18,057 bases of DNA from a virus: the UHGV virus genome UHGV-0071990; one strand, 5' to 3'. Made by a program: the position numbers and the translations under genes. Positions 2,051 to 10,347 of this stretch are shown in pieces. How positions within the stretch are numbered: position 1 is the stretch's first letter; each line of letters opens with the position of its first letter. The notes below the pieces were generated by a model. The model ran no database searches, had not been told where the DNA came from, and saw only the letters and a list, made by a program, of their open reading frames with translations.

Positions 2051-2350
2051 TCAGATGTTAAACGCTATTCGTTTTCCTGTGGGAAGCTCAACATCCAGGC
2101 TTAATTTGCCTCCCATAGCTTCAACGTAACGCTTTAATGTCGCCAGCTTTAAATCATTTCCGCGCTGCTCCAGCTTTGTTACTGCTGGCTGACTAATACC
2201 CATCGCCTCAGCAACCTGTTTTTGTGATAACTGGAGTTCTTCACGCATCATCTGCAAGCCGACCTCAAGAATCATCTCATCTGCCATTTCTTTAATTCGC
2301 GCCTGGCTTTCCGGTGAACGGCTGGCAATCACCTCATCTAATGTTCTCAT
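2051..2350 (-). CDS. HTH (XRE-type) antitoxin of a type II toxin-antitoxin pair, HigA-like addiction-module antidote (99 aa)
   Basis: HTH motif LSQKQVAEAMGISQPAVTKLEQRG. Its start overlaps the stop of the upstream toxin gene by 1 nt (TAATG). Toxin-first gene order is typical of HigBA-type modules. Confidence 0.8.
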   Translation of the reverse strand: MRTLDEVIASRSPESQARIKEMADEMILEVGLQMMREELQLSQKQVAEAMGISQPAVTKLEQRGNDLKLATLKRYVEAMGGKLSLDVELPTGKRIAFNI

Positions 2351-2697
2351 TACTTGCTCTCCAGTGTGTTCAGATGTGCTGCAAACTCATCCTCAGCTAT
2401 ACGCACCAGTTTTTTATAAAACCGCTTATCGTTACTTTTGTCTCCTGCACAAAGAACGATAGCCCGGCGAATCGGATCGAACGCATAAAAGGCTCTTATC
2501 GGACGGCCAGAAAACTGAACGCGAAGCTCTTTCATATTTTTGTACCGAGAACCTTTTACGGTATCGGCATATGGCCTGGGTAACTCAGGTCCGTAAACCT
2601 GTAGATTTTTCAAATCAGCCAAAACCTTTTCCTGAAGAGCGTCTTCTTGCTCATTTAGCCAGTCGTCAAATCGCTGGCTAAAAAGTACCGTCCACAT
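2350..2697 (-). CDS. RelE/ParE-superfamily (HigB-like addiction-module killer) toxin, about 115 aa
   Basis: Translation has the conserved pattern of this family (KELRVQFSGRPIRAFYAFDPIRRAIVLCAGDKSNDKRFYKKL). The likely true start is the ATG at 2697, preceded by AGGA; the ORF track extends to a TTG at 2703. Confidence 0.8.
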   Translation of the reverse strand: MWTVLFSQRFDDWLNEQEDALQEKVLADLKNLQVYGPELPRPYADTVKGSRYKNMKELRVQFSGRPIRAFYAFDPIRRAIVLCAGDKSNDKRFYKKLVRIAEDEFAAHLNTLESK

Positions 2698-2706
2698 GAT
2701 CAATCC

Positions 2707-3232: not shown

Positions 3233-3528
3233 ACATCTGTTTTGTTATCAATGAAGATTAATCCCAACCCAGCGAAGTAACACAGCAGCGCCCAGGCTGC
3301 ATACGGAATGCTGGATCTGGATGTGGACTCCTTTAACATCTGCCAATTGCGAACATTGCGACTGTCTTTTAGGCCAAGTTTTTTAGCCAACTGCGAGCCA
3401 CTCATTCCAGTCAGGCCAATGACTGCCCGAACTTCTCCACATGTAGGAGATTCCCATTCATCCGCTTTTTTTAAACAAGCCGGATTCAACATTTTTAAAA
3501 CAGTATCTTTATCCATAATCATCTCCAT
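3229..3528 (-). CDS. Putative HTH DNA-binding protein with a C-terminal hydrophobic segment (95-99 aa)
   Basis: HTH-like stretch RAVIGLTGMSGSQLAKKLGLKDSRNV and hydrophobic C-terminus IPYAAWALLCYFAGLGLIFI. The likely start is the ATG at 3516, preceded by GGAG. A palindrome TAGGAAA-tct-TTTCCTA sits at 3547-3563 just upstream. Confidence 0.55.
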   Translation of the reverse strand: MEMIMDKDTVLKMLNPACLKKADEWESPTCGEVRAVIGLTGMSGSQLAKKLGLKDSRNVRNWQMLKESTSRSSIPYAAWALLCYFAGLGLIFIDNKTDV

Positions 3529-3724
3529 TTATTACATCTACGATGGTAGGAAATCTTTTCCTATGTGGCAATAAAAATTTACCACGTTTCGTATAAGACA
3601 AGTTTTCTATGCCTAATAGGAAATGATGATTCTTACGTTTTATCACGTTCTGATGGCTACTGTGTGCGTATTTATCAACGTTTATTGATAAGGCTCGCCC
3701 CTTCCTCCTGCAAAGCCCGGCCGT

Positions 3725-3876
3725 AGGCCTTATTTCGGCCTTATATAAATTGATTTTGTATAGTTCGAAACGCGCCGTTTCGAAAAGAATGATCAGGCTG
3801 CTCCATGCCTCCGGCAAGTGCCGGAGGAGGTATATTTGAGCGTAGCGACTCGAACCGGCGCGAGCTTTAGCTCGCT
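3725..3876. repeat. Cluster of four GC-rich hairpins in an otherwise AT-rich intergenic region
   Basis: Seen directly: AGGCC-ttatttc-GGCCT (3725-3741); TTCGAAACG-cgc-CGTTTCGAA (about 3765-3785); CCTCCGG-caagtg-CCGGAGG (about 3808-3827); GCGAGC-ttta-GCTCGC (3861-3876). Function unknown. Confidence 0.4.
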
Positions 3877-3899
3877 GCAAGGGCGAACATATTCACAGG

Positions 3900-4159
3900 C
3901 AAAGCCTGCGTAAGTTAAATAAAGAAAGTCTTAATAAAAGAAAGTGATTTTGCATTTATTTGTTTAGTGCATCTATTATAAAAAACCATTTGCATATACA
4001 TATCAAAACTGTGGATAACTTAATTAGCCGATGCCTGTAAAGGCGATATTTACGCTGTGTTCAGGTTTAGAGAAAATTAACTTAGATTATTTTTTGAACA
4101 GATATTTTATTGCGACGTAGATAATCCTCCGGTAAAACCGGATTCATCATTCAGGTGGG
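3900..4159. other. Candidate plasmid-type replication origin (oriR-like): AT-rich region immediately downstream of repA
   Basis: Very AT-rich stretch located 3' of the RepA gene, which is where oriR lies in IncFII replicons. It contains a perfect DnaA box. No ORF of 60 aa or more is present. Confidence 0.4.
4010..4018 (-). promoter_or_regulatory. Consensus DnaA box (TTATCCACA on minus strand)
   Basis: Plus strand reads TGTGGATAA at 4010-4018, a perfect 9/9 match to the DnaA box consensus. Confidence 0.5.
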
Positions 4160-5008
4160 TTAATGTTGAAGTGATTTCCAGGTCTTTCTTAGCCTGTTAT
4201 AACGCTGCTCAACGAGGGAGCGTAAATATGCAAGGTCAGCACCAGGATACATGCCATCAGCAAACTCCTGGCTAACCTCTCTAGTGATTTGATGACGAAG
4301 TTCGGCCTCTCCCTTTTCCCGGACAAGACGCGCAGCTCTCTCCGCTGCTTTCTGTTTTGCCTTTATCTCTCTGGCCGTCTTCCTCTGACGCCATACATTC
4401 TCCATCTGCTCCTGAATAACAATACGCTTATAATCAGCCTCCGTTATCGCTTTTTTAAGCCGTTCGCTATTCTTCGCATTGAAGTAATTAAGTTTCTGGC
4501 TAACCGCACGTCTCCATGCTTGTTCAGTAATACCAACGGTTTCCAGCAGTTGATCACGAATCTCTATTTTCGCTGGCCAATACTGTTTATTCACCCGATC
4601 CCAGCGACGTTCATAATCAATAAAACCTAACGCTTTCAGTTGCGACAACGCCCTTGTACAGCGCGTTATAGACTTGTTCCCAGCTTCAGATACGGTAGAC
4701 AGGCCGCAAAAATCAGCCAACGCCTCAGCACTAGCCAGAACCCGCTTAGAAATGATGTTTACATGGTGCAAAATCGCAGCGATCACAGCATTAATCGCCC
4801 GACGACGATGCTCGTTTATCCGGCGCTTCCGCTCTGACGGTTGATTAACGTAGAACGCAACCTCACACGTAAGATCACGCCCATTAATGCGCTGTAAAGC
4901 ATCAGATAACACCAGTGGCAGCTTGTGCGTATGGTGCTTTGGAGGCTGGAACTCCGGCGATAAATTACAAACGTAAGCTGAACGTAGAGACGGCATTGGT
5001 CTATCCAT
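4160..5008 (-). CDS. repA: Plasmid replication initiator, IncFII RepA-family (about 282 aa from ATG at 5008)
   Basis: Translation contains RRAINAVIAAILHH...CGLSTVSEAGNKSITRCTRALSQLKALGFIDY and a basic, coiled C-terminus, which resembles the R1/R100 RepA1 protein as I remember it. The ORF track extends in-frame to 5170, but the ATG at 5008 gives the expected size. Confidence 0.75.
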   Translation of the reverse strand: MDRPMPSLRSAYVCNLSPEFQPPKHHTHKLPLVLSDALQRINGRDLTCEVAFYVNQPSERKRRINEHRRRAINAVIAAILHHVNIISKRVLASAEALADFCGLSTVSEAGNKSITRCTRALSQLKALGFIDYERRWDRVNKQYWPAKIEIRDQLLETVGITEQAWRRAVSQKLNYFNAKNSERLKKAITEADYKRIVIQEQMENVWRQRKTAREIKAKQKAAERAARLVREKGEAELRHQITREVSQEFADGMYPGADLAYLRSLVEQRYNRLRKTWKSLQH

Positions 5009-5018
5009 ATGTTCGCTC

Positions 5019-5046
5019 TTGCGTCCACGGAAAACCAACGTATAAT
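5019..5046 (+). promoter_or_regulatory. Sigma70-like promoter (-35 TTGCGT, 16-bp spacer, -10 TATAAT) directing transcription antisense to the repA leader
   Basis: Seen directly: ttgcgt at 5019-5024 and tataat at 5041-5046. Together with the terminator at 5105-5135 it defines a roughly 80-nt transcript. Confidence 0.5.
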
Positions 5047-5052
5047 GGGAGT

Positions 5053-5135
5053 TGTCGAGGCGCCCATGGATTGTTTTGTTGGTTTTCCGTGGATGTCGCA
5101 AGAAGCCCGCAGATTTATCTGCGGGCTTTTTGTTT
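5053..5135 (+). ncRNA. Putative CopA-like antisense RNA complementary to the repA mRNA leader (copy-number control)
   Basis: Promoter at 5019-5046 followed about 60 nt later by a strong intrinsic terminator. The unit lies 45-130 nt upstream of the repA start on the opposite strand, the same layout as CopA/CopT in IncFII plasmids. The transcription start is inferred, not observed. Confidence 0.5.
5105..5135 (+). terminator. Rho-independent terminator (GCCCGCAGA-ttta-TCTGCGGGC followed by TTTTTGTTT)
   Basis: Seen directly: a perfect 9-bp stem, 4-nt loop and T-tract on the plus strand. Confidence 0.65.
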
Positions 5136-5174
5136 CCATATCTGGTCAGTTTCCAACCAGACACCCACAATCGT

Positions 5175-5191
5175 AACCACGTTACGTGGTT
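5175..5191. promoter_or_regulatory. Perfect 17-bp palindrome (AACCACGT-T-ACGTGGTT) upstream of repA; candidate operator
   Basis: Seen directly, between the invertase stop (5321) and the repA leader. Confidence 0.3.
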
Positions 5192-5320
5192 TTAAGAGAA
5201 CTCTACCACAACACTTTCGGTCATGCACGAAGTCTCTCGCTAATCGAACGATAATCCACCAGTAAAAGGATCTAAATCGGATCTCGTGTTGCGAGCATCA
5301 TACTACTGGTCTTACTCCAG

Positions 5321-5875
5321 TCAATGATTCCCAGCCGGAAACCTGCGGTAAAGCGTGGATAAAGCAACATCGAAGATAATCGCTATCTGTTTACGTGAAA
5401 CACCATTCGCAATAAGCCTTCCGACCTGTTCCCATTGCTCTGGAGCCAGTTTTGAGCGGCGCCCCCCTATCCTGCCGTTAGCCCTTGCCACCGCTAATCC
5501 CGCACGCGTTCTTTCAATAATATTTTCCCGCTCCATTTCTGCGACCGCACTCAGCATTGTGTAGGCAAAGCGGCCAATTGATGTGCTAATTTTTATTCCT
5601 TCTGTAACAGAAATAAACTCAATGTTGTTTGATAAAAAATAGTTAAGTAATTCAACAAGATGAATCAGAGAACGTCCCATTCTGTCCAGCTTCCAGACAA
5701 TAACCGTATCGCCCGGCCGTAACGCTTTTATCAGCTTATCCAGTCCTGGTCGTTTTGACTTCGCGCCAGATATTTTATCTTCAAAAATCCGGTCACATCC
5801 TGAACTCCTGAGCGCTTCCAGTTGTAATTCCAAATTCTGGTCAAAAGTTGACACTCTCGCATAGCCGTATTGCAT
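5321..5875 (-). CDS. Serine-recombinase DNA invertase of the Hin/Gin/Cin/Pin family (184 aa)
   Basis: N-terminal catalytic motif GYARVSTFDQNLELQ, then VWKLDRMGRS, AEMERENIIERTRAGL, GRIGGRR and a C-terminal HTH (RKQIAIIFDVALSTLYRR), all collinear with Gin/Pin as I remember them. It lies directly adjacent to a crossover site. Confidence 0.93.
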   Translation of the reverse strand: MQYGYARVSTFDQNLELQLEALRSSGCDRIFEDKISGAKSKRPGLDKLIKALRPGDTVIVWKLDRMGRSLIHLVELLNYFLSNNIEFISVTEGIKISTSIGRFAYTMLSAVAEMERENIIERTRAGLAVARANGRIGGRRSKLAPEQWEQVGRLIANGVSRKQIAIIFDVALSTLYRRFPAGNH

Positions 5876-5939
5876 ACTTTCTAACCCGCAATTGTTGCTA
5901 AAAGCGGGAAAAAATATCGTTCAGACGACACGGAGGCAA

Positions 5940-5965
5940 TTCTCAAAAACCTCGGTTTGCAGGAA
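5940..5965. promoter_or_regulatory. 26-bp invertase crossover site 1 (gix/cix/pix-like), core TC at 5952-5953
   Basis: TTCTCAAAAACC-TC-GGTTTGCAGGAA. The inner half is a perfect inverted copy of the inner half of site 2, and the outer half matches 9 of 12. It resembles the gix consensus TTCCTGTAAACCGAGGTTTTGGATAA. Confidence 0.8.
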
Positions 5966-6943
5966 ACGATAAACAAGGCTGGTAACGCCGTCCAAAAGAC
6001 AGGTGATGACTTATCAGGTGGACTTACTTTTACAAACGATTCAGTCCTTGCTTGGGGGAGAAATACTGACAGCGCAAAAATCGGATTTAAAAATGATGCC
6101 GACAGCGACACTGATTCATACATGTGGTTTGAAACGGGAGATAACGGCAATGAATATTTCAAATGGAGAAGCAAACAAAGCACAACAACAAAAGACCTGA
6201 TGACGCTGAAATGGGATGCGCTAAATATTCTTGTTAATGCCATTGTAAATGGCGAAGTCATATCAAAATCAGCAAACGGCCTCCGTATTGCTTACGGTAA
6301 TTACGGATTCTTTATTCGTAATGATGGTTCAAACACATACTTCATGTTGACAAACTCCGGTGACAACATGGGGACTTATAACGGATTAAGGCCATTATGG
6401 ATTAATAACTCTACTGGCGCTGTTTCGATGGGGCGTGGCCTTAGTGTTTCAGGAGAGACATATTCAGACCGTTTTGCGATTAATAGCGGCAACTCCATGT
6501 GGGTTGATATGCGCAAACAGAATGTCATTTTTGGCCGTAATGCGGTATCTAACGACAGTGCCCAGGCATTGTTACGTCAGGACCATAAAGATCGCAAATT
6601 TATGATTGGCGGTCTGGGAAATAAGCAATTTGGCATCTACATGATTAATAACTCAAGGACAGCCAATGGTACTGACGGTCAGGCGTATATGGACAATAAC
6701 GGTAACTGGCTTTGTGGTTCACAAATTATTCCCGGAAATTATGGAAATTTTGATTCCCGCTATGTGCGTGACGTTCGTATGGGAGCTAACCAGAGCGGAA
6801 TAAAATGGGGTGGTGAAGGTGGAACACTCCCGGCGGGGTATGTTCTTACAGGAGGTAACTTTGATGATGACTGGGAGTGGCCTGTTTATGCGCCCGTCCA
6901 GAAATATATTAATGGTCAGTGGTACAATGTAGGACGTGCTTAA
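5954..6943 (+). CDS. Silent alternative tail-fiber C-terminal cassette (about 329 codons, no own start)
   Basis: The open frame begins at the crossover with [15 protein letters not shown], paralleling GLQETVNQAAGALQK in the expressed fiber. It ends with the conserved C-terminal motif [11 protein letters not shown] (expressed copy: INGTWYNAGSI). It has no upstream start or Shine-Dalgarno motif. Confidence 0.8.
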
Positions 6944-6944
6944 T

Positions 6945-7472
6945 ATGCAGCATTTAAAAAATATTAAAGCAGGAAATCCAAAAACCATCGAACAGTATCA
7001 ACTTACAAAAGAATTTGATGTTGTCTGGTTATGGTCGGAAGACGGTAAGAACTGGTATGAGGAACAAAAGAATTTTCAGCCAGACACGTTAAAAATGGCA
7101 TATAACCAGGAGGGTATTATTTGCTGCATAGAGAAAGACGTATCCCTGATTAACCCGGAGGGAATGAGTGTGATTGAGTTACCCAATATTACGGCAAACC
7201 GACGCGCTGATATTTCCGGCAACTGGATGATTAAGGATGGTGCTGTAATTAAAAGAGTCTATACAGAAGATGAATTACAACAGCAGGCTGAATCACAAAA
7301 AGCAGCTTTGCTTTCCGAAGCTGAATCAGTCATCCGGCTGCTGGAACGTGCCGCCAGGATGAATCTGGCAACAGATGAGGAACGTACACGGCTGGATGGC
7401 TGGGAACGCTACAGCGTTCTGCTCAGCCGCGTGGATACGGCAAATCCAGAATGGCCACAAAAGCCTGAATAA
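6945..7472 (+). CDS. tfa: Tail fiber assembly chaperone, cognate to the silent cassette
   Basis: [20 protein letters not shown]... is closely paralogous to the 7499..8032 protein (shared [40 protein letters not shown] motifs). It starts 2 nt after the cassette stop. Confidence 0.85.
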
Positions 7473-7477
7473 AAAAT

Positions 7478-7495
7478 AAGGCCCGAACGGGCCTT
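7478..7495. terminator. Bidirectional hairpin terminator between the convergent tail-fiber assembly genes
   Basis: AAGGCCC-gaac-GGGCCTT with an A-run upstream and T-rich sequence downstream. Confidence 0.5.
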
Positions 7496-7498
7496 CTC

Positions 7499-8032
7499 TC
7501 ATTCTGGTTGTTCGGGGAACGTGACTGGCAGGACGGAGGTATCCGTAGACTCTACTTTCTGCGCGTAGAGCAGCCACTCGGTCAATTTTTGTTTATTCTC
7601 AGCAGAAATAATTCCAAGTCGTAGCTGAGAATCCCATAGCTGAGTTTTATCCCTGACGAGTTGTAACAGGTTTTGCTTCTCATTTTCCGCCTGTTGTCTC
7701 TGTTCTTCTTCGGTATATTCCCGCTTTATCACTGCGCCATCTTTGAACATCCAGTTACCAGAAATATCGACTCGCCTATTGGCTGTAATATCAGGAACCT
7801 CAACAACGCTTAAACCTTCAGGATTAATTGTCGATACATCCTTATCTACAGCCACAATGATTCCATCGGCAGTGTAAGCAAATTTTATTGTATCTTCCTG
7901 AAAGTTTTTCTGTTCCTCATACCAGTTTCTATCGTCATTAGAATACAACCAGACAACACCAAATTGTCGTGTTAATTCATATTGCTCTACGGTTTTGGGA
8001 TTTCCTGATTTGATATTTTTTAAATGCATCAT
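7499..8032 (-). CDS. tfa: Tail fiber assembly chaperone, cognate to the expressed fiber C-terminus
   Basis: MMHLKNIKSGNPKTVEQYEL... is paralogous to the 6945..7472 protein. It lies 2 nt downstream of the tail fiber stop. Confidence 0.85.
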   Translation of the reverse strand: MMHLKNIKSGNPKTVEQYELTRQFGVVWLYSNDDRNWYEEQKNFQEDTIKFAYTADGIIVAVDKDVSTINPEGLSVVEVPDITANRRVDISGNWMFKDGAVIKREYTEEEQRQQAENEKQNLLQLVRDKTQLWDSQLRLGIISAENKQKLTEWLLYAQKVESTDTSVLPVTFPEQPE

Positions 8033-8034
8033 AA

Positions 8035-10347
8035 TTAAATACTTCCCGCATTATACCAGGTGCCATTGATACAATATTGCACTGGCCTTGCCTGTGTTGT
8101 ATCAATAAGTTCATCTTTGTTTGAGTTAACGGAACCTGTAACAACGTAACCAGATTTATCGCCCCAGCCCGGACCATTCCATGTTTGCGCTGATGATTTT
8201 GTACCTAATCGAATACCTGTAATAAATCGTGAATTACATTCCGCTTTAGTATATGCCCCAACATCTGCTGCTGAAGGTTTTCTGGTTGTGGTGTAAAACT
8301 CTGACCAGTCAGCCTCGAAGCCATAACCATCACGCGCTGAACGATAATAAATCCCACCGTTCTTATAATTTACGCGGAACTGTACAGCAGGGCAGCTCCC
8401 CGCGTTCATATTGAAGTGGAGGATTAATGTCGATGCGCCACCAATATTTGCGTTATATACCCCGCTATTCCAGTTCCAGCCAACAGCTTTATCATTTCCG
8501 ACAGTGCTTCCTGTTATCCCTAAAGCAAAAGCGGCCTGCTGATTTTTCGTGTTGTAGTCACGTCGCCAGCCAGGTAAATACTCTGAACCATGGTTAATAT
8601 ATATAAATTGTGCATTAGTGGTGCCACCACCGCTAGAGGTACTCGGTGTGGTTATACGAATGGTCATGGCGCCTTTATGGCCCATAACTTCAATAACACA
8701 ACCCGCAAGGTGAATAAGTCCACATCCGGTGTCAGTAATAATTTTATTATTGCCGTATGACCATGAGCATTTACACAGCCAGTATGGATGATTGAAGGCC
8801 CATTGAGATTCCAGCCATTCGATAAATTGTGCCGTTGTCCAGTTCCCTGCTCCTGTGCTGATAGAGCTATGAAAAGAGCGGCAAGCACCTATTGTTTGCG
8901 TAAATTTATCTTTGTTTGGAATATCTGCGCCGTTCTGGTCTTTCTGCAATGCGCCAGCGGCCTGATTTACCGTTTCCTGCAAACCGAGGTATTCGATAAC
9001 GGCGGCAACGGTCGCTTTAGCCAGAATATCCCGCCCGACTTTTGTCAGAGTTGCCAGGCTGGCGGTGTCATTCCCTGTAAAATACGGAAACCTGTCTGCC
9101 GCAGTAGCAAGCCCGGCCAGCGCCGTCAGGGTGGCGTCTTTCGGCTGCTTGCCCGCAAGCGCGTTGGTCATAGTGGTCGCAAAGTTCGGGTCATTGCCCA
9201 GTGCCGCAGCCAGCTCGTTCAGCGTATTCAGTGCGTCAGGTGATGAGTCTACAAGTGCGGCAATCGCGGCCATAACGAACGCCGTGTTTGCTATCTGAGT
9301 ATTGTTAGTACCCTTTGGCGCAGTTGGTGTTGTTGGCGTTCCGGTCAGTGCCGGGCTGTTCAGGGGCGCTTTCTTGTTCGTTTCATCCATTACCGCCTTA
9401 ACCGCTTTCGATGTTGCGGCCAGTGTTTCAGACGTGCTGTTGGTCGCACTACTAAGCTGAGTGATGCCTCTTACTGTCAGTGAAGCTACAGGCACATTTG
9501 TAATCTGATTCCACGAATGCGTGTGATTGGAAGGAGCCTTTCCGGCCGCAAGATCATACGCTTCCTTAACAGCCTTTGGTGTTGCTGCTAGCGTTTCAGA
9601 CGTGCTATTGGTAGCGCTACTGAGCTGAACAATCCCTTTTCGCGCTGTGGTAGCGTCCTGTGCGGTGTATTTGCTATTAGCCAGGTCATATGCCTCCTTA
9701 ACAGCCTTAGGCGTCGCAGCAAGCTTTTCAGACGCGCTATTGGTGGCGCTACTAAGTTGAACAAAGCCTTTTGAGGTTAAAGTTGCATCAGGATGATTAC
9801 GTGATTGCTCATGTTTCACAATGGCTTGCTTAAGCCGCTTTGCTGAAACAGCAAGGGAATCATCTGTACCTGCATCAATTTCTTGTTCATTAGCAAATCT
9901 TGCTACCCCAACAACAGTTTCGGTCGCGGGAGGATTAATAAACTCAATATCACCAAATGTAATATTTTTAGTATCAAGAGTCTTAATTGCTATATCACTT
10001 GATATTAAAGCGATAGTAGATGATGCTTTATTTATTATTGCTTGTTCTTGTGAGTATACAGCAAACAAGGTTCCCTTATTCGTATACAATCCTATTGTAT
10101 GGACAACATACTCATCTTTACTATCATCCTTCGCCGTTACATGAATTGTATCAGGGGAAACAACTTTGCCACCTATTGTAGTAAGTCGTTTTATTTCGTT
10201 TGTTATATTTGTTTGTGAGGTTGACGTGACATAATATCTACTACCTAAACCAACAGAAACAATCTCAACTTTATTTGTTCCTGTTTTGTTGGCATTAACC
10301 AGCTCCTGACGCCCGGCATCAGTCATCGTAAATAATAATTTACTCAC
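8035..10347 (-). CDS. Phage tail fiber protein (770 aa) in its currently expressed orientation; constant region to about codon 454, variable C-terminus inside the invertible segment
   Basis: A long ORF directly after the gpI-like gene, with internal tandem repeats typical of fibers. The crossover site lies in-frame at codon 454 (IEY-L-GLQET). It is followed by a tail-fiber assembly gene. Confidence 0.9.
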   Translation of the reverse strand: MSKLLFTMTDAGRQELVNANKTGTNKVEIVSVGLGSRYYVTSTSQTNITNEIKRLTTIGGKVVSPDTIHVTAKDDSKDEYVVHTIGLYTNKGTLFAVYSQEQAIINKASSTIALISSDIAIKTLDTKNITFGDIEFINPPATETVVGVARFANEQEIDAGTDDSLAVSAKRLKQAIVKHEQSRNHPDATLTSKGFVQLSSATNSASEKLAATPKAVKEAYDLANSKYTAQDATTARKGIVQLSSATNSTSETLAATPKAVKEAYDLAAGKAPSNHTHSWNQITNVPVASLTVRGITQLSSATNSTSETLAATSKAVKAVMDETNKKAPLNSPALTGTPTTPTAPKGTNNTQIANTAFVMAAIAALVDSSPDALNTLNELAAALGNDPNFATTMTNALAGKQPKDATLTALAGLATAADRFPYFTGNDTASLATLTKVGRDILAKATVAAVIEYLGLQETVNQAAGALQKDQNGADIPNKDKFTQTIGACRSFHSSISTGAGNWTTAQFIEWLESQWAFNHPYWLCKCSWSYGNNKIITDTGCGLIHLAGCVIEVMGHKGAMTIRITTPSTSSGGGTTNAQFIYINHGSEYLPGWRRDYNTKNQQAAFALGITGSTVGNDKAVGWNWNSGVYNANIGGASTLILHFNMNAGSCPAVQFRVNYKNGGIYYRSARDGYGFEADWSEFYTTTRKPSAADVGAYTKAECNSRFITGIRLGTKSSAQTWNGPGWGDKSGYVVTGSVNSNKDELIDTTQARPVQYCINGTWYNAGSI
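8974..8999. promoter_or_regulatory. 26-bp invertase crossover site 2, core GA at 8986-8987, inside the tail fiber coding sequence
   Basis: TTCCTGCAAACC-GA-GGTATTCGATAA. Bases 8971-8990 are the exact reverse complement of 5949-5968. Confidence 0.8.
9390..9790. repeat. Three imperfect tandem repeats (about 140-160 bp each) within the tail fiber constant region
   Basis: The DNA motif ccttaac(a/c)gc...gtttcagacg(t/c)gct(a/g)ttgg...gc(a/g)ctact(a/g)ag(c/t)tga recurs near 9398, 9557 and 9698. It encodes the repeated peptide QLSSATNS(A/T)SE(K/T)LAAT(P/S)KAVK. Confidence 0.6.

Follow-up and report, generated by a model that had tools for sequence, protein, structure and literature searches.

Comparative analysis points to an IncFII_repA-family replication origin, followed by conserved hairpins, downstream of repA in an Escherichia coli phage-plasmid

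An element that combines the genes of a tailed phage with a plasmid initiator raises the question of where its replication begins, and at which sites. We addressed it in a stretch of 18,057 nt (hereafter the window), for which a preliminary description had proposed an origin in the AT-rich 260 nt that follow repA (3900-4159). The ~1.6 kb around repA and the putative origin are 98% identical to ~60 non-mobilizable plasmids of ~48 kb from E. coli, E. fergusonii, and Salmonella, and equally close to three Yersinia phages (vB_YpM_39, 41, and 44). The records of these relatives contain a full tailed-phage set (terminase, portal, capsid, contractile tail, baseplate, and tail fibres) and, in addition, a Hin-type invertase, ParA, toxin-antitoxin pairs, and one plasmid initiator. 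Since phage genes and a plasmid initiator occur together in near-identical records, the window is, judging by these relatives, a piece of a ~48-kb E. coli phage-plasmid. Our literature search found no paper on the replicon of this phage-plasmid group or on the Yersinia phages. To find an origin downstream of repA would not surprise a plasmid biologist, and origins of this kind are already known. We estimate at roughly 85% the probability that the segment from ~4020 to ~3700 is the vegetative, oriR-type origin of an IncFII_repA-family replicon that maintains the ~48-kb phage-plasmid.

The initiator matches the Pfam family IncFII_repA (PF02387) with E = 8e-44, covering profile positions 2-272 of 275, and ~60 E. 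coli plasmids of ~48 kb encode the identical RepA. Its identity to classical IncFII RepA is only ~31-41%, over 83-126 of its 282 residues. The minus-strand open reading frame of repA spans 4160-5170 (336 codons), and both this frame and the 326-aa RefSeq RepA are over-extended at the N terminus (5009-5170), the first ~40 residues of the RefSeq protein stemming from an indel variant or from another frame. Translation probably starts at ATG 5008 or ATG 4996; relatives, which begin at MP(S)LRS, suggest that it may be the latter. Upstream of repA, on the plus strand at 5022-5135, we observed a candidate RNA with two hairpins (MFE -66.6 kcal/mol, z = -10 against shuffles), which ends in a perfect intrinsic terminator (GCCCGCAGAtttaTCTGCGGGC followed by T5) and runs antisense to the repA leader. 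Its position antisense to the leader makes it a likely copy-number control RNA of the CopA/Inc type; as a strongly structured antisense-RNA candidate upstream of repA, it resembles CopA of R1. It belongs to no Rfam family at the gathering score.

We compared the repA loci of relatives at 85, 83, 81, 63, ~60 (three loci), and 37% RepA identity, and aligned the 660 nt downstream of repA in nine lineages spanning 37-100% RepA identity. Conservation is 0.70-0.95 from ~4025, at the DnaA box, to ~3800, and fades left of ~3700. The box, the motif triplet, the AT-rich repeat block, and the distal hairpins (Table 1) persist downstream of repA to 37% RepA identity, while the genes past the conserved block differ between relatives (Gp49/HTH, HicAB, or ParE). 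One of these relatives, pCAV1311-34, is annotated as a mobilizable plasmid and has no phage genes in the stretch examined. As neighbours and backbones change while the block persists, the block travels with repA. The interval proposed initially, 3900-4159, has to be shifted: the conserved module runs from ~4020 to ~3700, and 4019-4159 is variable spacer. Since the module extends ~200 nt to the left of 3900, the fragment 3900-5320 suggested for a cloning assay would cut conserved parts. Other properties ascribed to this interval hold. The DNA 3' of repA is strongly AT-rich, with a GC content of 0.29 (3900-4099) and 0.355 (4000-4199) against 0.40-0.52 around it, and it has no credible gene, as no open reading frame of at least 50 aa overlaps 3881-4159.

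Table 1. Features of the repA locus and its putative origin, in window coordinates and in repA-sense order.
Feature	Position	Strand	Remarks
repA, replication initiator	4160-5008	-	282 aa from ATG 5008; Pfam IncFII_repA
Spacer, repA stop to DnaA box	4019-4159	-	141 nt; position of the CIS region in R1, IncB, and IncI replicons
Small conserved stem-loop ATCCGGTTTTACCGGAGGAT	4125-4144	-	just past the repA stop; then a conserved A-run (~4086-4100)
DnaA box TTATCCACA, 9/9	4010-4018	-	repA-sense orientation; + strand reads TGTGGATAA
Three ATGCA(A/C) motifs	3995-3991, 3972-3968, 3955-3951 (span 3951-3995)	-	putative RepA sites; one is ATTTGCAT
AT-rich block, putative DNA unwinding element	3905-3947		16-nt tandem direct repeat at 3915-3946
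Weak DnaA-box-like motif ATATTCACA	3889-3897	+	inverted relative to the box at 4010-4018
Hairpin A, CCGCCCTTGCAGCG-(4-bp variable stem, loop)-CGCGCCGGTTCG	3850-3887		imperfect ~13-bp stem
Hairpin B, CCTCCGGC-loop-GCCGGAGG	3808-3827		preceded by conserved (A/T)AGGTAGCACC / TACCTCC
Distal conserved block, minus strand GGCCTACGGCCGGGCTTTGCAGGAGGAAGGGG	3696-3731		approximate left limit of the conserved module

The module opens with the minus-strand DnaA box that had been reported as a 9/9 match, and which is indeed an exact TTATCCACA, 141 nt past the repA stop. It is the only exact box of the window. In the complete relative that we used for whole-element checks (L014, NZ_AP022164.1, 47.4 kb), the sole exact box lies 142 nt after repA, and eight of the nine aligned lineages keep the box, seven of them exactly and the 85% relative as TTATTCACA. 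The repeated motif described beside the box is real, but not in the form given: ATTTGCAT occurs exactly only once, at 3988-3995, and the presumed second copy is ATTTTGCAT, which shares with it the 7-mer TTTGCAT at 3949-3955. With a third TGCAT at 3968-3972, the repeat consists of three TGCAT/ATGCA motifs. These start 23, 46, and 63-64 nt after the start of the box (a spacing of 23/23/17-18), and do so in all relatives with 59-100% RepA identity. Their columns are invariant across the nine lineages, the window conservation being 0.77-0.95, and the first conserved element in repA-sense order is gTTATCCACAgtttt.

The repeated motif beside the box varies with the lineage of the initiator. It is ATGCAA here, CTGCAA in L122, CCGCAA in L059 and L131, CCGCGA in L097, and CTACAA or CTACGA in further lineages; in IncI-gamma/K it reads AATCCGCAA, AAGCTGCAA, and AACCTGCAA, and in R1-like origins CTGCAAGGG and GTGCGTGG. 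A repeat that tracks the Rep lineage is what one would expect if initiator sites evolve together with their initiator, and we regard the three ATGCA motifs as putative RepA binding sites. Betteridge et al. (J Bacteriol 2003, 2004) are said to have found that the RepA of IncB binds AANCNGCAA repeats next to the DnaA box, which would agree with the lineage-specific repeats seen here; a text search of the searchable literature gave no match to AANCNGCAA.

Past these motifs lies the AT-rich block, where a direct-repeat search found the minus-strand 16-nt tandem repeat ACTTTCTTTTATTAAG / ACTTTCTTTATTTAAC. Of all 40-mers in the 18-kb window, the one at 3911-3951 ranks among the ten with the lowest stability (z = 2.54), and the block occupies the place of the TCNTTTAAA repeats in R1-like origins (TCTTTTAAA, TCCTTTAAA, and TCATTTAAA). 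The least stable 40-mer of the neighbourhood is 4071-4111, inside the spacer, so that stability alone does not uniquely define the unwinding site. The weak box-like motif that comes next is preceded by a small hairpin (3896-3908). Its ATATTCACA is the complement of the conserved repA-sense CCTGTGAATATG and belongs to a family-wide CTGTGRAYA motif that is nearly invariant among 28 origins. Several lineages have a full or 8/9 box at this position (TGTGGATAA in L141, L152, and L122; TGTGGATTA in IncL/M), and DnaA perhaps binds here as well.

How does this arrangement compare with known origins? The oriR of R1 comprises 188 bp next to repA, contains one consensus DnaA box, and directs unidirectional theta replication; the binding of DnaA depends there on RepA bound immediately downstream of the box, which reads TTATCCACA in repA sense in the MiniR1-1 primer sequence (PMC5883639). 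As in R1/R100 (NR1), an IncFII_repA-family gene and a spacer of 140-175 nt precede the origin, whose repA-proximal edge is marked by one consensus box of like orientation; an initiator-binding stretch (putative here), AT-rich short repeats, CTGTGRAYA, and hairpin B then follow in that order. In the R1-like L003, for instance, the spacer is 175 nt long, and three TCNTTTAAA-type repeats lie ~95 nt downstream of the box, followed by CCTGTGGACAG and a GC-rich hairpin. The two differ in several respects. The Rep-binding stretch has no nucleotide similarity, with ATGCAA at 23/23/17 nt here against the R1-type sequence; the R1-like sequence has no hairpin A; and R1/R100 are conjugative plasmids, whereas the host element here is a tailed phage-plasmid. 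The TGCAA motifs of the R1-like origin lie at a distance of 68 bp from each other, which would not fit the site spacing of R1 RepA, and we make no claim on them. Taken with the Pfam family of the initiator and the orientation and distance of the box, the conserved order of the elements supports the initial assignment of the locus to the IncFII-type oriR found downstream of repA.

The same order recurs further afield. For this comparison of elements we fetched IncI-gamma/K and IncL/M (pOXA-48) plasmid sequences directly. The IncI complex (IncB pMU720, IncI1 ColIb-P9, and IncK/Z) and IncL/M have the spacer, TTATCCACA, several NGCAA-type repeats, and an AT-rich stretch, and continue with CTGTGRAYA, a variant of hairpin A (GCAGCG..CGCGCCG), and hairpin B. 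Their Rep (RepZ type, ~340 aa) is too distant from this RepA for BLAST and is linked to it only via the Pfam family. They carry four repeats instead of three, and their spacer has a clear intrinsic terminator, whereas the spacer hairpin here has no U-run. We also observed that, some hundreds of nt past the origin, an R1-like IncFII replicon (L003, 3540-3720) and an IncI-gamma/K replicon (L164, 1550-1720) share a nearly identical stretch, e.g., CCTCATAACTGAAAAGCG...CGCTTTTAATTATGAATGTTGTAACTAC...GTAAGCGGCCCT.ACGGCCCGCTAACGCGGAGATACGCCCCGA, though their Rep genes and origins differ. This near-identity may reflect a shared G-site region or recombinational exchange. The G-site of R1 lies ~400 bp beyond oriR and is not adjacent to it.

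These likenesses bear on the alternative that survives best, although we consider it improbable: that the region has a regulatory role or belongs to the 3' end of repA, the box titrating DnaA or damping copy number, the ATGCA motifs being an operator or a CIS element that holds RepA, and the origin lying elsewhere. Two observations speak for it. First, mutation of the DnaA box in the oriR of MiniR1-1 raises the copy number from 1 to ~6, i.e., the box acts negatively, and in R1 it is auxiliary and dispensable (PMC5883639). Second, a conserved stem-loop follows the repA stop. This small structure retains its stem in the alignment despite substitutions in both arms (CCGG/CCGG vs CCAG/CTGG), folds as a single sequence no better than shuffles (z = -0.96), and may be a CIS or terminator element; it lacks a U-run, and a promoter/terminator scan calls no minus-strand terminator after repA. 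Against a purely regulatory role stand three facts: the order of box, repeats, and AT-rich repeats matches the R1-like, IncI-gamma/K, and IncL/M origins; the 47-kb relative has no other exact DnaA box; and repA keeps its conserved block even on unrelated backbones. An auxiliary box with a negative effect on copy number, as in R1, marks the origin and not its essential core, and by analogy the box is probably auxiliary here too. We retain the reading of the module as the probable origin.

Beyond the weak box, the module continues with two hairpins. We searched one-genome-per-species and viral collections with a pattern for hairpin A and obtained 149 matches. The bare pattern GCAGCG-N9/10-CGCGCCGGTTCG was dropped as too GC-rich, 121 of the 149 being chance matches in genomes of ~67% GC, and our counts use the 28 matches that have an extended flank not required by the search (CCCTTGCAGCG). 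An IncFII_repA-family gene lies less than 1.5 kb upstream on the same strand in 26 of these, the other two being at contig edges; they include R1-like origins from Mixta, Erwinia, Klebsiella, Pantoea, Buttiauxella, and Cedecea, as well as RepZ-like (IncI-complex) replicons. Over 28 distinct origins, 98.9% of the hairpin A cells are paired, and 38 cells have changes on both sides, against 11.4 +/- 2.4 in shuffles (0 of 500 reach 38); slid controls drop to 25-44% paired. Three variable pairs of the stem are free of the constraint of the search pattern, and an extra compensatory change, G:C to C:G, was found in L009, a lineage recovered via RepA and not via the pattern. An invariant T:G pair of hairpin A would be a C:A mismatch on the other strand, an asymmetry that hints weakly at the repA-sense strand as the one that folds. 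The R1-like L003 lacks hairpin A, through an apparent deletion of ~55 nt, and retains hairpin B.

The stem of hairpin B differs by lineage yet remains complementary (CCCGGC/GCCGGG, CCCGC/GCGGG, or CCCATCGC/GCGACGGG), and the hairpin is present in L003, IncI-gamma/K, and IncL/M. As single sequences, the hairpin region folds no better than shuffles on either strand (z = -1.65 and -1.89), so that the support for the hairpins is comparative and comes from covariation. Two automatic calls in this segment were set aside. A plus-strand 'terminator' at 3808-3827 is hairpin B itself, with no gene upstream on that strand, and an open reading frame at 3509-3880 (minus strand, 123 aa, TTG start), which overlaps the hairpins, has no Pfam match, is unannotated in relatives, lies in a region with non-triplet indels among them, and was rejected as a gene. 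A perfect palindrome with 9-bp arms (TTCGAAACG-cgc-CGTTTCGAA) was observed at 3764-3784; it is kept only in the closest RepA lineages (81-100%) and is absent from the ~60% group.

At the left edge, GCAGGA followed by a G-run (minus strand) is common to eight of the nine lineages. The plus strand at 3704-3717, CCTCCTGCAAAGCC, matches the primer start of phage G4, CCTACTGCAAAGCC, at 13 of 14 positions; the G4-origin alignment scores 23 against a shuffle maximum of 26, in a test of low power, since an R1-like positive control also stays at background. The block is a weak candidate for a priming site. As in the complementary-strand origin of phage G4 and in plasmid G-sites, conserved stem-loops are found here just beyond the predicted unwinding region, in DNA that would be exposed first; the positions of the hairpins relative to CTG differ between G4 and this locus. 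Because the hairpins lie just past the predicted unwinding region, priming or replisome loading is our preferred guess for their function. Hairpins A and B could form a family-wide single-stranded-DNA signal, so far undescribed, for leading-strand priming or helicase/replisome loading, shared by IncFII-like, IncI-complex, IncL/M, and phage-plasmid replicons; we put this forward tentatively, as a possibility that is less likely than not.

The repeats and hairpins could also serve another function altogether: they might be a site for partition or for packaging (pac/cos), a phage operator, or a gene for a structured RNA, which we find more unlikely still than a regulatory role. In favour of this, the phage-plasmid carries ParA, ParB-like genes, and a terminase, and hairpin A covaries like a structured RNA. 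However, the same module follows repA in the non-phage plasmids pCAV1311-34, IncI-gamma/K, and IncL/M; in the complete relative, ParA is ~6.7 kb away and the terminase more than 20 kb away; and hairpin A was found only behind IncFII_repA-family genes. Nor does the Rfam scan of the window give a match at the gathering score. A permissive scan of 3400-5400 returned chance-level matches only, none of them in 3690-3900 and one in the origin region (snoRNA sn3071 at 3970-4033, E = 2.9, 17.5 bits against a gathering score of 40). The sequence of hairpin A had no text match in the searchable literature.

There remains the question of chance. Shuffles of the whole window contain 0.21 exact DnaA boxes on average, and at least one in 40 of 200 cases, so the box alone is not significant window-wide. 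In a pre-specified target of 260 nt an exact box is expected ~0.003 times; the box is significant for that target and through its conservation. The least probable reading, an ordinary AT-rich intergenic spacer with a box and short repeats by chance, could appeal to these window-wide shuffles and to one-mismatch boxes that are not enriched (6 found vs 5.1 expected), but it is already contradicted by conservation, the box and the three motifs being (near-)invariant down to 59% RepA identity next to a scrambled spacer (column conservation of only 0.43-0.59 over most of its length), and by the TGCAT trio, whose spacing is fixed across lineages and which is expected 0.01 times per window at that spacing (1 of 200 shuffles has such a trio).

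A GC-skew switch on the full element had been proposed as a check of the origin, and there is none: the cumulative skew of L014 rises monotonically, and in 46 of its 47 one-kb bins the repA-sense strand has more G than C. As 57 of its 65 genes are on one strand, the uniform skew is equally explained by gene co-orientation, and it neither locates nor orients the origin. It fits unidirectional replication in the direction of repA, and no switch is expected for a unidirectional, co-oriented element.

From the elements, their order, their conservation, and their covariation we infer a course of protein binding, DNA opening, directional replication, and priming. This process would involve 1) RepA, translated from the minus strand and probably acting in cis across the 141-nt spacer; 2) its binding to the three ATGCA motifs (3951-3995) beside the DnaA box; 3) binding of host DnaA to the box at 4010-4018 and perhaps also to the inverted weak box at 3889-3897; 4) opening of the AT-rich repeats (3905-3947) by RepA and DnaA, and loading of DnaB; 5) theta replication running unidirectionally away from repA, toward lower window coordinates; and 6) exposure of the stem-loops at 3808-3887 and the block at ~3700-3730, which would be single-stranded first and serve leading-strand priming or replisome assembly.

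Some further observations concern the host element. The annotation of L014 names no initiator, helicase, or primase besides RepA. The phage-plasmid may reuse RepA and its origin for lytic growth, or some of its hypothetical genes may form a lytic replication module that has gone unrecognised, and a separate origin for the lytic cycle may exist elsewhere on it. At 5321-5875 on the minus strand, the window encodes a Hin/Gin-type serine invertase (domains Resolvase and HTH_7), which adjoins tail-fibre and tail-fibre-assembly genes of opposing orientation (5321-10347). A 178-nt inverted repeat (6944-7121 / 7856-8033, 75% complementary) lies between them, and together these features look like an invertible host-range switch in the style of Mu Gin or P1 Cin. 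A RelE/ParE-family toxin with an HTH antitoxin (2051-2703, minus strand) is presumably a plasmid addiction system; the equivalent place in relatives is taken by HicAB, ParE, or Gp49/HTH pairs instead.

Our analysis proposes where, to the nucleotide, the origin and the initiator sites are likely to lie in a widespread family of ~48-kb phage-plasmids of E. coli, Salmonella, and Klebsiella, which has also been recovered as infectious Yersinia phages. This would be of use for replicon typing, for the prediction of incompatibility, for vectors built from this replicon, and for the study of the switch between plasmid maintenance and lytic growth. The comparison indicates that the whole IncFII_repA superfamily follows one blueprint, in which a DnaA box is succeeded by lineage-specific GCAA-type repeats, then AT-rich repeats, an inverted weak box, and conserved hairpins. 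The conserved hairpin module is specific to the origins of this superfamily, and no description of it was found in the literature that we searched. If it does act as a signal in single-stranded DNA, it was perhaps overlooked because R1 has lost hairpin A and the minimal oriR was defined without that region.
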